From a virus (lineage: Duplodnaviria; Caudoviricetes): a stretch of 39,330 bases of DNA. Both the position numbers and the translations under genes were made by a program. Of the stretch, positions 1,930-8,016 are shown piece by piece; positions within the stretch are counted from its first letter, which is position 1, and every line of letters begins with the position of its first letter. Location of the stretch: the IMG/VR virus record IMGVR_UViG_3300043409_001052, positions 1 to 39,330 of that record, one strand, 5' to 3'. The notes beneath the pieces were generated by a model that made no database searches, was not told the DNA's origin, and saw nothing but the letters and a program-made list of their open reading frames with translations.

Positions 1930-2079
1930 CCCTTTCATTTTATTTTTATAGGGTTTATCCCTATAATAAAATGAGGGTTTGGCGCTACGGCTTGACGTAC
2001 GGTTTGTTAACATAACAACCCGTATGGTAACCCGTATGAGACGGTGCAAGCCCAAAATGCAAAAAAGTGGGTTTTTTGC
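1930..2079. other. Palindrome/direct-repeat cluster, candidate packaging (cos/pac) region
   Basis: Imperfect inverted repeat 1930-1977 (TCATTTTAT..TATAGGG/CCCTATA ATAAAATGA), AACCCGTATG twice at 2017-2038, GCAAAAAA-N5-TTTTTTGC at 2059-2079; noncoding, upstream of the terS operon. Confidence 0.35.
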
Positions 2080-2439
2080 GGTTTACACACAAGAAACTTA
2101 CGAGGTGCCTCGCCGTTGGCTCCCTCCGTGGGGGGGGTGGGAATAGATTTCTTCGTGGGGTAGGTAGGCAGGGACGGCGGGTGCGCGGCTGTCAGGCCGC
2201 TGTCAAATCTCGTCATTTTGGCCTGTTTTCTCGTTTTGTCGCTCGTTTTCTGCGCGCGCAAGCGCTCGGCGCGCTCGGCAAGCGCTCCGTGATCGCCGAC
2301 AAGCGGCGCGGATCGGGTCAGGCGCGGCGGGTGGATCGTTCCGCGCGCGTCAATTTCGTGATCAATCGCGCGCCGATCGGGTGGCTGGCGCGGGCTGGTG
2401 ACGGCTTCGCCGCGCGCTCGGATCGTGGCAAGCGGGCGC

Positions 2440-2472
2440 AAGAAAGCCCCTCAGCGTGGCGCTGAGAGGCTC
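2440..2472 (-). terminator. Intrinsic terminator ending the high-GC operon
   Basis: Minus strand AGCCTCTCAGCG-CCA-CGCTGAGGGGCT hairpin running into TTTCTT, about 70 nt after the last ORF. Confidence 0.7.
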
Positions 2473-2542
2473 TTGACCGTCTCTCCCCGCCCTACCCCCT
2501 GCCCTGTGTAGGGCGCGGGGCGTGGCGGGGCTGTGGCGTGGT

Positions 2543-2830
2543 TCAGGTGCGGTAGCCAAGCGCCTCGGATCGCCGCTTGCCTTCGTCCACGATCAGGCGG
2601 GCAAGCGCTAAGAGGTCTTTGGAAGTCTCGAGCGCCTTGACGATCCCCTCCTTGTTCGGTGGATCTTCTTGGCCGTTGCGCGTGGCCTCAAGGATCGCGG
2701 CGGCGATCTTCTCGCGCCATTGATCGCGATCCTGTGGCGGTCTGTTCGCGTGATCGGCAAAAAGCGCGGTCAGGTATTCCGCGAGAGTGTCGGACGGTGG
2801 GGGCATTTTTATTTTTTTAGGTTTGGGCAT
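2543..2830 (-). CDS. Hypothetical protein
   Basis: Tiles with neighbours; helical; leader CCCACCCTATG. Confidence 0.7.
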   Translation of the reverse strand: MPKPKKIKMPPPSDTLAEYLTALFADHANRPPQDRDQWREKIAAAILEATRNGQEDPPNKEGIVKALETSKDLLALARLIVDEGKRRSEALGYRT

Positions 2831-2840
2831 AGGGTGGGGA

Positions 2841-3041
2841 TTATTTCCAGCGGTTGGTTGCGTTGGCGGCGCGTAGGAAAGCGCGCGCGCGGTTCAACTT
2901 GCGCGCGCACTCGGTGAGGTCGCACGATTGGAGCGCGGCAAGCGCAAGGGTCAGGCATCGGCCGACCTCCTTGATCAATTGCTCGGTGGTCATCGGCTCG
3001 CCTTCGGGCGCGCCTTCATTGGGTGGTTGTGGTGTAGCCAT
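2841..3041 (-). CDS. Hypothetical protein
   Basis: Fills the gap between co-oriented ORFs; leader CCTTTCCCAATG like neighbours. Confidence 0.6.
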   Translation of the reverse strand: MATPQPPNEGAPEGEPMTTEQLIKEVGRCLTLALAALQSCDLTECARKLNRARAFLRAANATNRWK

Positions 3042-3050
3042 TGGGAAAGG

Positions 3051-4055
3051 TCAGGCGGCGAATGAGACAGTAAAGCCAAGCGCGCCGAGTTGTCGGGCGA
3101 TCTCTTTGCGGGCGCTGTCGGGCGTCTCAAAAGCGCTTTCGCCGTTTTCTGCGTCTGATAGTTTTGGGAGTTCGTAGGATCCAACAGGGTTAAGATCCTT
3201 TCGGTGATCACTGCGCGGGTTTCCGTATCCGCGCCGCAACTCGTCAACGGTGACGGGATCGGTCAGATCGCCGATCGACTCAATGGCGGCAAAGTGGATG
3301 CGCCGAAAGGTTGCGGGGTGCGCGAGGGATACGGCCAGACGGTCAAGGCTCAGGGCGGCGCCCGCTTCCTTCACTAAGTGTCTGATCACCGTTTGCTGGT
3401 TTTCGCCTTTGTGCGTGTCGTGGTGGACGCTGTGAGTCTCTACCTCTACGCTGTGGCCGCCGTTTTCTAAGGCATCGATCACGGAGGCGATCGCGGCGCC
3501 GCGATTGCATAGCGCCTTGGCGCTTACGCCGCACGATGCCGACAATGGCACGATCAATCTGACGATCTTTGACTTTCCACCTGTTAGATCTTCCGCGTCT
3601 GTCTCAAAGTGGCAGGGATCGCCCGCAATGAATGAAGGGGTGCAAAGTGTGCCGCCCGATACATCAAAGTCAGGCGGCGGCGTCAGGACAAAGTCGCCCG
3701 CAAGTGAGGCAAGCGCGTTGCCCATTTTCTTTCGACCTTCAGGCCAACCGTTGTTTGCAAGATCAAGCGCGCCCTGCCATCCCGCGCCGAGATCCCAATC
3801 CATTCCCTCCTTGCCTTGGTGCGGCTCGCGACTGCTTGGATCATTCGCAAATTTCGCTTTGGGCTTTCCTGCCTCGCTTGTGATCCATCGGACAAGCGCC
3901 GCGAGTGAGTCGGCGCGGATCTGAACGGACGCGATCAAGTTTTCTTTTTCTTGCGTGTCAGGCTTATAAGCGGGATTTTTGCGGCGCGGGTGGCGCGTGA
4001 GTCGGACGCCTTCGCAAAGGCGCGCCGATGTGTCGGGTGGTGGTGGTGTGTCCAT
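3051..4055 (-). CDS. vWA-like protein (degenerate MIDAS), partner of the MoxR ATPase
   Basis: RLIVPLSASCGVS...RGAAIASVIDALENGGHSVEV strand/helix pattern typical of phage vWA-like proteins downstream of MoxR/CobS ATPases. Confidence 0.65.
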   Translation of the reverse strand: MDTPPPPDTSARLCEGVRLTRHPRRKNPAYKPDTQEKENLIASVQIRADSLAALVRWITSEAGKPKAKFANDPSSREPHQGKEGMDWDLGAGWQGALDLANNGWPEGRKKMGNALASLAGDFVLTPPPDFDVSGGTLCTPSFIAGDPCHFETDAEDLTGGKSKIVRLIVPLSASCGVSAKALCNRGAAIASVIDALENGGHSVEVETHSVHHDTHKGENQQTVIRHLVKEAGAALSLDRLAVSLAHPATFRRIHFAAIESIGDLTDPVTVDELRRGYGNPRSDHRKDLNPVGSYELPKLSDAENGESAFETPDSARKEIARQLGALGFTVSFAA

Positions 4056-4095
4056 TGGTAGATCCTGGGGGTATTGTTCGGTTCCCTGGTTTTGC

Positions 4096-6561: not shown

Positions 6562-6816
6562 TCAGGCGTTGCGCGGATCGGGTGCGCCTTGTTCAACGCG
6601 GGTCAGGGACTCCAAGATCTCGGCGGCGGTGCAACCGACAATCCCCGATCGTTGTTCGTAGTTATAACCCGCCGCGAGATCCACGAAGATCATTCTTCCC
6701 TCAGGGTGCCACTCGGTGTGGTAGGACTCCACGCGGTGATCGGCGTCAAGTTTCGCGGACAGTTTCGCGGACAGCGGGCGGCCGTCTTGGGAGAAAGTGC
6801 AAAGTTTAGATTTCAT
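6562..6816 (-). CDS. Hypothetical protein
   Basis: Tiles the operon; CTAAACTTTCCC leader. Confidence 0.7.
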   Translation of the reverse strand: MKSKLCTFSQDGRPLSAKLSAKLDADHRVESYHTEWHPEGRMIFVDLAAGYNYEQRSGIVGCTAAEILESLTRVEQGAPDPRNA

Positions 6817-6843
6817 CTTGGGAAAGTTTAGCGGGTGGAAAGT

Positions 6844-7143
6844 TTAGCGGGTCAGGTTTTCAATGATCTTTTCAAGCGATCCAATGTCTCCGTCACCGTT
6901 GCGCGCCGCTTCAAGTGAGAAGTGGATCGCCTGTGCCGCGTCCGACAGATCGCAAAGGCGCGTCCGCAAGATCCTTTCGTTTTTCTCCTTCACCTCGGCG
7001 GTGAAAGCGGGATCGTTCCGCCACTCCTTAGCGGCTTTAAGATCAACGGAGAGAACTCGCGCGCAAGTTTTCAGGGCGCGAAGATCGTTAGTGAAAAGGC
7101 GCAAGGCGTTGGCGGTGCGCTCGGGTGTTTTGGGTGTGTCCAT
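6844..7143 (-). CDS. Hypothetical helical protein, first gene of the high-GC operon
   Basis: ATG 6 nt downstream of the predicted -10 element. Confidence 0.7.
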   Translation of the reverse strand: MDTPKTPERTANALRLFTNDLRALKTCARVLSVDLKAAKEWRNDPAFTAEVKEKNERILRTRLCDLSDAAQAIHFSLEAARNGDGDIGSLEKIIENLTR

Positions 7144-7149
7144 CCCTTG

Positions 7150-7188
7150 ACCGTAGGGCGCGCGGCCTGTATGTCAAAGTCTTTTTTT
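7150..7188 (-). promoter_or_regulatory. Sigma70-type early promoter, probably giving a leaderless mRNA
   Basis: A7 tract, TTGACA (7177-7172), 16-nt spacer, TACGGT (7155-7150), ATG at 7143. Confidence 0.6.
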
Positions 7189-7210
7189 GGCATACAGGGG
7201 AAAGCGCCGC

Positions 7211-7260
7211 CGCCGTGGATCATCCCGCGCCGTGGATCATCCCGCCGCCGTGATCCACGG
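7211..7260. repeat. GATC-cored 17-bp tandem repeat plus inverted partial copy
   Basis: CGCCGTGGATCATCCCG twice (7211-7244); TGATCCACGG (7251-7260) is the reverse complement of CCGTGGATCA. Confidence 0.9.
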
Positions 7261-7470
7261 TCAAACGGCCTACGCGGTCAGGCCGCCGCATTTACCTTTG
7301 GCGCGTTTGCCTATGTCCTGACATACCCCTACCCCTTCCGAGCGCTTGGCGGGGCATTTGCGCGCGATCCTGAGGGGATCCAGCCGCCCGCGCTGTCAAG
7401 CGCTCGGCGATCGCGCCGCGCGTATCAGGCGCGCGTGTTTCCAAGCGGGCAAGCGCGCGCGTCCTTCTTA

Positions 7471-7718
7471 GCGCGTGCGTGCGCGTGCGTGCGTGCGCGT
7501 GCGTGCGTGTGCGTGCGTGCGTGCGTGCGTGCGTGCGTGCGTGCGTGCGTGCGTGCGTGCGTGCGCGTGCGTGCGTGCGTGCGTGCGTGCGTGCGTGCGT
7601 GCGTGCGTGCGTGCGTGCGTGCGTGCGTGCGCGTGCGTGCGCGTGCGTGCGTGCGTGCGTGCGTGCGTGCGTGCGTGCGTGCGTGCGTGCGCGTGCGTGC
7701 GTGCGTGCGTGCGTGCGC
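7471..7718. repeat. (GCGT)n microsatellite, perfect purine/pyrimidine alternation (GY)124
   Basis: Directly visible; interruptions are only extra GC or GT units. Confidence 0.97.
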
Positions 7719-8016
7719 TCTGGCGGCCTGGAGCGCTGTGGCATAATTATCTTACCTTTATTATAACCATTATATCAAAGGATTGTATTCCAGATGAAAT
7801 CTCAGATTTTAGTGCCAGAAATTTTTGAAGGATTTTTATCCTATACATTATGCCATGCCATATGGAACAAGACCCAGGGGGGGGTATGCATAGGGACAAA
7901 TTTGAGTAAAAAAAAAGAAAAAAACAAAGCCACCCATGGGGTGTATTTGATCGGGTCAAAATCCTGTTAAAAAAAAAGAAAGAATAAGGCTGCGGGGTGG
8001 GGCGCAATCTTCTGTC

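Follow-up and report, generated by a model that had tools for sequence, protein, structure and literature searches.

The 39,330-nt window analysed here, by which we mean the whole stretch of viral DNA, contains at the predicted right end of the phage genome a block (2125-7470) that lacks a series of restriction-type palindromes and is packed with another, GATC. Within 2200-7470, ACGT, AGCT, ATAT, CATG, CTAG and GTAC are each absent where 8-19 are expected, and GATC occurs 104 times against 19 expected, a 5.4-fold excess. Five 5-bp palindromes, GCWGC, CGWCG, GAWTC, GGNCC and GTWAC, are likewise at zero in the block; CCGG and CCSGG are missing genome-wide, so their absence is not block-specific. 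In 500 runs of an order-2 Markov null of the block, the six purged words never numbered fewer than 22 and GATC never exceeded 102, and in 55 windows of 5.3 kb from outside the block the six words numbered at least 63 and GATC at most 19. The GATC saturation and restriction-word purge described in an earlier note on this DNA thus hold far beyond chance. The rest of the genome retains the purged words (128 CATG, 144 AGCT), so that restriction sites are missing from the first segment and kept in the remainder, as in T5. Outside the block GATC stands at 0.6 of expectation, hence it is not overrepresented genome-wide in the manner of cyanobacterial HIP1. The edges are sharp: the last purged word on the left lies at 1997 and the next at 7772, and GATC spans 2291-7409 at a flat density that stops abruptly at the same edges.

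Synonymous places able to hold GATC are filled in 88 of 107 cases in the block versus 61 of 563 elsewhere. The enrichment is not a by-product of the purge, which is ruled out by shuffles with the purged words kept out (39.8 +/- 3.5 GATC, maximum 46). All four bases flanking GATC are enriched (4.2-6.2x), therefore the enriched word is GATC itself, and its transition and transversion neighbours GATT, GATG, GATA, GACC and GAGC are all depleted, therefore no single mutation type feeds it. Host-like composition can also be set aside, with GATC at 0.7-0.9 in 191 kb of two candidate host genomes versus 4.1 in the block (order-1). GCGC and CGCG, missed at first reading, are up 3.7-fold and 3.0-fold in the block, and one GATC, GCGC or CGCG occurs on average per 13 nt. 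GCGC and CGCG are not supported as methylation marks: they are up in phages of nearly every host, and CCGCGG, ACGCGT and TGCGCA are missing from the block. Their enrichment is a separate trait that occurs whatever the host.

The window amounts to one 38,491-bp circle in which 839 bp recur as an overlap, the two copies showing 22 differences; the overlap covers the terminase small subunit gene terS (354-950, minus strand, phrog_57) and leaves out the terminal block. A lambda gpA-type terminase large subunit (37005-38855, minus strand; PF05876, PF20454), whose best cultured matches reach 22-25%, and a lambda-type portal (PF05136) are present, and the source, a lake phage, belongs to a large freshwater family that likely infects Verrucomicrobiota. 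From the contig ends of relatives we infer fixed ends with a 19-20-nt 5' cohesive overhang upstream of terS, a cos site placed in the window by homology at 2105-2124 (minus strand). Of 47 distinct relative contigs reaching this region, 25 begin at a point 170-300 nt upstream of the homologue of orf1507, and three block-side contigs end on the same 19-mer type at which terS-side contigs start. On the block side of cos, a 12-nt motif (2142-2153, minus strand), cosQ-like by position, occupies the same place in the window and in eight of the ten spanning relatives. Across cos, toward terS, a pair of 10-nt direct repeats (2017-2038, minus strand) may be cosB-like, again by position, and 12-bp tandem repeats lie at that position in G005, G006, G010 and G013. 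The earlier note had anticipated a cos near 1.9-2.1 kb and a packaging-distal block of about 15% of the genome, and both agree with a cos at 2105-2124, which makes the block the predicted right, packaging-distal end, at 14-15% of the genome. Its proposed start at 1930 was wrong: the block begins at cos, and 1930-2104 belongs to the terS-side virion end. Long direct terminal repeats with pre-early genes, as in T5, were not found; the ends are of cos type instead. In lambda, packaging starts on the terS side, and the opposite end leaves the head and enters the cell first; by analogy with lambda and with Serratia phage JS26, the block end likely enters first.

The block genes all lie on the minus strand and would be transcribed toward the genome end. 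The promoter and terminator proposed for the block fared unevenly. The putative sigma-70 promoter read in the sequence at 7150-7177 (7150-7198 with an 8-bp inverted repeat, 7166-7198, that overlaps its -35) has a perfect -35, but its -10, 16 nt apart, matches at only 3/6 positions, and it falls below the scan threshold and goes unlisted. The terminator-like hairpin with a U-rich tail that closes the operon (2440-2472, minus strand; 13-14-bp stem) is supported at 2444-2472 (z -2.96), but is unlisted in the consensus scan. Upstream of the putative promoter is a 17-bp tandem repeat containing GATC (7207-7252). Then follow, in the direction of transcription, four small orphan ORFs without family (5848-6090, 6094-6378, 6562-6816 and 6844-7143, together spanning 5848-7143); a CobS/MoxR-like AAA ATPase (4706-5833; PF07728, PF00004; phrog_249, E 4e-49), whose homologues lie close to the right end in phiM5 and in three Gordonia phages; a 199-aa orphan (4096-4695) with no family and no informative atlas match; a DUF7192 protein (3051-4055; PF23822, E 1e-24; phrog_1909), which we take to be the vWA-like partner of the ATPase and which has 12 relatives at 42-79% identity; and two small orphan ORFs (2841-3041 and 2543-2830, spanning 2543-3041) with no Pfam or NCBIfam match. 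A non-coding terminal stretch (2154-2439) is dense in GCGC, CGCG and GATC in 250-nt bins. The idea that the signature belongs to a stealth module of MoxR/vWA genes did not survive: no MoxR or DUF7192 locus was found in viral contigs, and MoxR/vWA occurs in 0/10 largely complete relatives, which rules out the block genes as carriers of the signature. The signature is positional.

A candidate for the enzyme that marks GATC is encoded beyond the block, a phage adenine methyltransferase (9581-10078, plus strand) predicted to be GATC-specific. It scores 61 bits against PF05869 (curated cut-off 28.1), has an NPPY motif and shares 36% identity over 136 aa (E 7e-23) with M.Phi93DAM, which has been shown to methylate GATC (PMC4190342); it scores below the TIGR01712 cut-off, and we found no solved structure for it. 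Five sequencing runs were compared as assembled contigs. In run X4, one contig skips the methylase gene (9580 joined to 10281) and block alleles lack GATC at 3266, 3273, 3384, 5129, 5140 and 5738, the contigs being unlinked and from a mixed population; a further GATC (2973) is not among the listed differences. Close strains keep the same genes without these GATC sites, an outcome that the earlier note had listed as refuting and that speaks against a fixed gene-plus-signature module. Between G004, which has the methylase, and G003, in which none was seen at 93% completeness, GATC gains stand at only 4 against 1 within the block and at 17 against 8 in the remainder.

Across relatives, all 26 complete blocks have a higher palindrome density in their interior than the remaining genome does, and the words involved are lineage-specific. 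The general trait is palindrome enrichment, and a strong purge is the exception. The biased block sits at the same place with different genes, and its enriched words (AGCT, CATG, GCCGG, TCCGG, CGGCC, WGGCC) look like methylase targets. The phage methylase is rejected as a general cause: none was detected in G005, G006, G012 or G013, all complete or 99% complete with biased blocks, and in overlapping record sets, mostly fragments and with seven metagenome loci left out, PF05869 occurs in 2/30 and 1/22 records, PF01555 in 2/34 and 1/22, and PF00145 in 3/34 and 13/22. Among 137 genomes from one candidate host's family, a DpnII-type nuclease is present in 1/137 and a DUF1998 protein in 4/137, and neither stands out as the selecting defence.

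In cultured cos phages, the enriched terminal word follows the host methylase. GATC is higher in the block than in the rest in 7/7 phages of enterobacteria and Aeromonas (p<0.01 in 3) and lower in 6/7 other cultured phages (p<0.01 in 3), with Dam carriage assigned to the hosts by assumption. No GATC gain is seen in the Proteus and Providencia phages (1.1/0.9 and 1.2/1.0), though both records annotate a methyltransferase, and CCWGG is up in only 2/7. In Burkholderia phage BcepNazgul neither GTWWAC nor CACAG, taken as the methylation motifs, is up. In all three alphaproteobacterial phages, which are not fully independent of one another, the top rank among 96 patterns falls to GANTC or to GASTC, a subset of it, with a significant rise in 0/11 cultured phages of other hosts; CcrM methylates GANTC in alphaproteobacteria (PMC10073500). 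Such a block is missing from P8625, there is no clear word bias in phiM5 and Sephiroth, whose ATPase gene lies at the right end, and the Casjensviridae L289 and L291 were excluded from the block test, their ends not being placeable in the fetched stretch.

The explanation that we favour, and consider reasonably probable, is that the leading end is sorted by methylation, with marked words kept and unmarked words shed, as a shield against host defences. As the genome end beside the inferred cos, the block would be injected first, following the lambda analogy and the JS26 precedent. Restriction-type words left unmarked would disappear from it, and GATC, the predicted target of the phage's own methylase, would be driven close to saturation. 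For some time the block would be the only DNA exposed, and the early genes it carries would then protect the site-rich rest. Dense methyl marks could lessen the threat posed by restriction enzymes whose sites overlap and by defences switched down by methylated DNA; in DISARM there is a precedent both for an off-switch made of methylation and for a system that loads at 5' overhangs. The purge is known already from T5 and Autographiviridae, and it is the methylation-site enrichment that appears to be new. More tentatively, we speculate that phages of unrelated cos-type families carry a methylation passport in their first-injected DNA. They would pack the leading end with sites for a methylase that can be relied on, be it one of their own or the host's Dam, Dcm or CcrM, would arrive hypermethylated there, and would quiet host defences that take methylation for self, without an anti-defence protein.

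The inner edge of the block raises another possibility, which is compatible with methylation sorting and not exclusive of it. The 248-nt alternating purine-pyrimidine tract reported there was found at 7471-7718, and G003 has a 212-nt tract in the corresponding position; the length in the window is uncertain because none of the contigs from the probable source run crosses the tract. Such a tract could be the stop signal of a two-step injection or, as Z-DNA lying behind the early promoter while the genome is still tethered, could buffer torsion. The proposed structural boundary gains support from tandem repeats in the inner-edge slot of 13/28 relatives versus 0/238 control slots downstream, and of 7/14 cultured phages, and in T5/BF23 the border is likewise described as repeat-rich, with a role that is so far a proposal (PMC10644984). 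We nevertheless think this reading unlikely: long alternating tracts occur in only 2/32 loci, 15/28 relatives have no repeat in the slot, and interior slots of the block also carry repeats (10/93).

It is also conceivable, though rather improbable, that the sites accumulate without benefit, by a molecular drive in which methylation-linked repair or gene conversion creates them, mostly at a recombination-focused free right end. Lambda recombination is focused at the right end, and the window phage encodes RecT-like and exonuclease genes. A drive has been proposed for HIP1, whose words track methylase presence in the available text (PMC4390886). Against it stand the flat GATC density with its abrupt stop at the purge edges and the depletion of all GATC neighbours. 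A regulatory role, in which methyl-reading proteins switch the early operon or time packaging or a second entry step, seems to us slightly less probable still. It would fit the GATC-bearing repeats directly upstream of the putative promoter, the control of transcription by CcrM marks (PMC10073500) and the need of P1 packaging for GATC methylation (as cited in PMC4190342); the sites, however, spread through 5 kb of coding sequence, beyond promoters, and a word that differs by lineage and host would require a new reader each time. An origin of the block as an island of foreign or host DNA, or as a chimera made in assembly, which its GC content (60% versus 47%), the absence of its genes from relatives and the unbridged tract might suggest, is largely refuted already and very improbable: one contig covers 627-7467 and so bridges the left junction, another runs from 7727 round to 560, and gene order is syntenic between window and relatives, so a chimera is unlikely, variant alleles lie on both sides of the left junction in three other runs, the block edge coincides with cos, the 191 kb of candidate host DNA lacks the signature, and relatives have a biased block with other genes at the same place.

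Sorting by methylation has partial parallels in known systems. The earlier note was aware of no such arrangement in a lambda-like-head phage, but JS26 is a lambda-type cos precedent. Like the window phage, JS26 and other Casjensviridae package at cos by means of a lambda-type terminase and have a boundary repeat and, at the genome end, a 6-kb block whose small early genes are transcribed outward; in the accessible text of the preprint, transposon data lead to the reading that the early block of JS26, gp01-13, is injected first (bioRxiv 10.64898/2025.12.19.695335). GATC is up in JS26 too (3.0 versus 1.4), and GCWGC, GTAC and AGCT are down; the bias in the window is much stronger, and word bias goes unmentioned in that accessible text. 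JS26 belongs to another family, with a genome of 64 versus 38.5 kb and no common block genes, and a gene set like that of chi or JS26 is absent, the only match to JS26 among 26 window proteins being a 20%-identity terminase. In T5/BF23, as far as the available text goes, the first-entering segment must likewise lack restriction sites that the rest keeps, and the inner border is repeat-rich, but T5 has long terminal repeats and proven two-step entry, and by suppressing Dam/Dcm methylation it does the reverse of accumulating sites for it (PMC10644984). Restriction sites also matter only in the first-injected variable region of Autographiviridae, T7-like podoviruses with transcription-driven entry for which the accessible part of the source reports avoidance alone (PMC12455610). 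The first-entering leading regions of conjugative plasmids are GC-rich like the block, but transfer is single-stranded and palindromes are not consistently depleted, and methylase-site enrichment is unmentioned in the text available (PMC13478746). HIP1 shares overrepresented palindromes with a cognate methylase, with other words in other lineages, yet on the accessible account it is cellular and genome-wide, with no accompanying purge and no restriction to a phage end (PMC4390886).

Avoidance of short palindromes is expected of phage genomes, above all in the DNA that is exposed first. The putative first-entering end described here defies this avoidance for one word class, and in cultured phages the word matches a housekeeping methylase of the host. 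If protective, it would be a sequence-encoded counter-defence, testable in DSS3-P1, R22L or JS26. If the passport reading is true, the enriched terminal word would predict the host methylome, and word bias offers a sequence-only route to the ends, entry order and host methylation motifs of uncultured phages.

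The segment at about 2125-7470 of the window, hereafter the block, is set apart from the rest of the genome by its short words. Within 2200-7470, GATC occurs 104 times (19 expected), GCGC 161 and CGCG 132 times (43 expected), while six four-base palindromes with 8-19 expected copies each, and five interrupted palindromes, are missing altogether. GATC is enriched with each of the four flanking bases, its density is level throughout and breaks off at both edges, and none of 55 windows of 5.3 kb outside the block approaches this bias. Synonymous GATC places are filled at 88 of 107 in nine block ORFs versus 61 of 563 in 27 other genes, and codon shuffles of the block ORFs return 37.5 +/- 4.4 GATC rather than the observed 88. 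Shuffles that also bar every purged word still give 39.8 (maximum 46), which rules out the GATC gain as a side effect of the purge. Alternating runs rich in G/C are also 8-fold denser in the block.

The window holds a complete phage genome of 38,491 bp plus 839 bp of assembly overlap, whose copies (1-839 and 38492-39330) disagree at 22 positions; two alleles of terS occur together in the probable source run. It encodes a lambda gpA-type terminase with its small subunit, a lambda-type portal, an S49 protease, and a rightward operon of ligase, adenine methylase, resolvase, RecT-like protein, exonuclease, helicase and primase. The ATP-dependent DNA ligase (8267-9124), the first large gene past the block, is unmatched in the relatives examined. 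Among sequencing runs the best match is a freshwater metagenome, and two genome bins with capsid-protein relatives are both Verrucomicrobiota, binning being weak host evidence.

Contigs of relatives place the genome end. Ninety-four distinct contigs truly end upstream of the terminase, 47 of which extend to the first gene past cos; 25 of these begin 170-300 nt upstream of that gene irrespective of terminase distance. Three block-side contigs terminate on the same 19-mer type that opens terS-side contigs, as expected of a 5' cohesive end that has been filled in. By homology, cos in the window falls at a 20-mer at 2105-2124, with a conserved motif nearby (2142-2153); inverted repeats on its terS side (1938-1972 and 1911-1931) are possibly late promoter or terminator elements. 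The block is thus the right end of the virion DNA. In lambda it is the right end that goes into the cell first. By analogy with lambda and the cos phage JS26, right-end-first entry is most likely here too; the terminal early genes of JS26 carry more transposon insertions than expected, and their expression begins within 5 min (bioRxiv 10.64898/2025.12.19.695335). The earlier note had proposed a restriction-purged, GATC-marked, first-injected module: the feature is real, and the note had the purge and the position right but was incomplete on its main point.

In every relative a block separates cos from the replication operon, and its gene content differs. The enriched word varies with lineage (AGCT, CATG, GCCGG, TCCGG, CGGCC or WGGCC), and block-only purges mostly involve one to three words, making the window's six extreme. 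Pooled, the 16 four-base palindromes have a higher density in the block interior than elsewhere in the genome for all 26 of the 26 blocks that extend to cos (medians 1.08 versus 0.75 of expectation); across 32 blocks (37 before de-duplication), 28% of 484 palindrome cases are more than 2-fold up, versus 10% of 3,840 for non-palindromes. Part of this excess is a loss of the host-like codon bias that marks the rest of the genome. Of 28 relatives, 13 have tandem repeats at the inner edge, versus 0 of 238 downstream and 10 of 93 block-interior slots, and several of these repeats are composed of their own genome's enriched words; a long alternating tract, the feature that the earlier note had put at the boundary, is confined to the window and relative G003, in both of which block genes are directed toward the end. 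Non-coding block stretches in three compared phages (L131 1-60, L119 1-60, L228 1-70) are near-unbroken arrays of four-base palindromes. Five relatives (G002, G032, G049, G054, L133) lack five to seven four-base palindromes genome-wide, a whole-genome alternative to the block strategy; G002 lacks GATC, GCGC, CGCG, AGCT and CATG and has CCGG once. In phiM5 and three Gordonia phages, homologues of the window's ATPase (4706-5833; homologue coordinates include L233 41916-43121 and L234 23662-24813) lie about 3 kb or less from the right end, and a gene of ~280-300 codons comes next in every case, which makes this a recurring terminal module.

A similar pattern appears in cultured phages. JS26 shares the window's layout, and its block exceeds its rest, relative to expectation, for GATC (3.0 versus 1.4) and CCWGG (1.9 versus 0.9), with GCWGC at 0.2 versus 1.8. 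Fifteen further phages came from a JS26 terminase search or by accession; two whose ends could not be placed were dropped, leaving 14 in total, JS26 included, scored for terminal operon versus remainder of the fetched stretch, and as these are akin to one another the counts overstate independence. All 7 enterobacterial and Aeromonas phages have more GATC in the block than in the rest, 3 of them at p<0.01, whereas 6 of the 7 other phages have less, again 3 at p<0.01, the Dam status of the hosts being our assumption; GATC is flat in the Proteus and Providencia phages, and CCWGG is up in just 2 of 7. The BcepNazgul block is not enriched in GTWWAC or CACAG, which we take to be Burkholderia methylation motifs. 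Alphaproteobacterial CcrM methylates GANTC (PMC10073500), and enrichment of GANTC was predicted for phages of such hosts ahead of counting. Block versus rest, it stands at 3.2 versus 0.9 in DSS3-P1, 4.7 versus 0.7 in R22L and 1.6 versus 0.5 in RcGingersnap; GANTC or its subset GASTC tops the 96 patterns in each of these phages, and GANTC is significantly up in none of the remaining 11. GCGC and CGCG are up in nearly all cultured blocks, and this rise is therefore a host-independent trait of these ends. Most cultured Casjensviridae blocks, like those of the window and G003, are raised in GCGC, CGCG, GCSGC and CGSCG and lowered in TCGA, regardless of host.

In the window phage, a methylase could be its own. 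The 165-aa product of 9581-10078 scores above the PF05869 cut-off and aligns with M.Phi93DAM at 36% identity over 136 aa; SMRT sequencing and DpnI/DpnII digestion showed M.Phi93DAM to methylate GATC (PMC4190342). Among close strains, one contig of run X4 omits this gene plus the next ORF, and block alleles in that run, from loose ends and difference tables and on contigs unlinked to the gene-skipping one, have lost GATC at six sites, with synonymous changes at 3266 and 3273; in run X3, none of 17 differences listed (of 48 places) falls within a GATC. The relative G004, which has the gene, gains block GATC 4 to 1 over G003, where none was detected (530 aligned columns), and 17 to 8 outside the block over 20.6 kb, lending slight support to the link. 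Four relatives with biased blocks, all of them complete or nearly so, yielded no methylase, which would leave the marking there to host enzymes; in one candidate host's family these are patchy (C5 methylase in 36 and D12-class in 17 of 137 genomes). C5 methyltransferases of 520-660 aa with extended variable regions, possibly multispecific, sit beside the primase in G001 (1684-3672), G046 (3930-5663), G036 (10584-12149) and L168.

How might such a pattern arise? The right end would most likely go in first and stay exposed until its own early genes act, such that words possibly arriving unmarked would be lethal there and purged; the rest would keep them through later protection, as in T5/BF23 (PMC10644984) and Autographiviridae (PMC12455610). 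Words always methylated on arrival would cost nothing, each likely bringing a small gain: it would hide overlapping sites from restriction enzymes that cannot be foreseen, or weaken defences that sense methylation. For the second route DISARM offers a precedent, as it loads on 5' overhangs of at least 7 nt and has lower activity on methylated DNA (PMC9142583; bioRxiv 10.1101/2021.12.28.474362), though in the latter source the protection of phages did not grow in step with the number of sites, and DUF1998 proteins were detected in just 4 of 137 genomes of the candidate-host family. The block of compared phage L198 is enriched in GTCGA and TTCGA and depleted in ATCGA and CTCGA, the depleted pair fitting the MTCGAK motif of a class 1 DISARM methylase. 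A methylation-linked drive, modelled on HIP1 (PMC4390886), could instead produce the enriched words, which we consider unlikely; that the marks serve a regulatory use seems a shade less probable still.

Early, first-injected blocks that avoid restriction sites were already described, a lambda-type cos phage being one example, and plasmid leading regions are GC-rich with inconsistent palindrome depletion (PMC13478746). We found no report of methylase-target enrichment in first-injected DNA in the mainly non-subscription literature searched, and an earlier mention is possible. Most likely, leading DNA keeps methylated words and sheds others as a shield against candidate host defences. The enrichment rule applies to two groups of phages that are unrelated to each other, and cultured phages allow it to be tested now.
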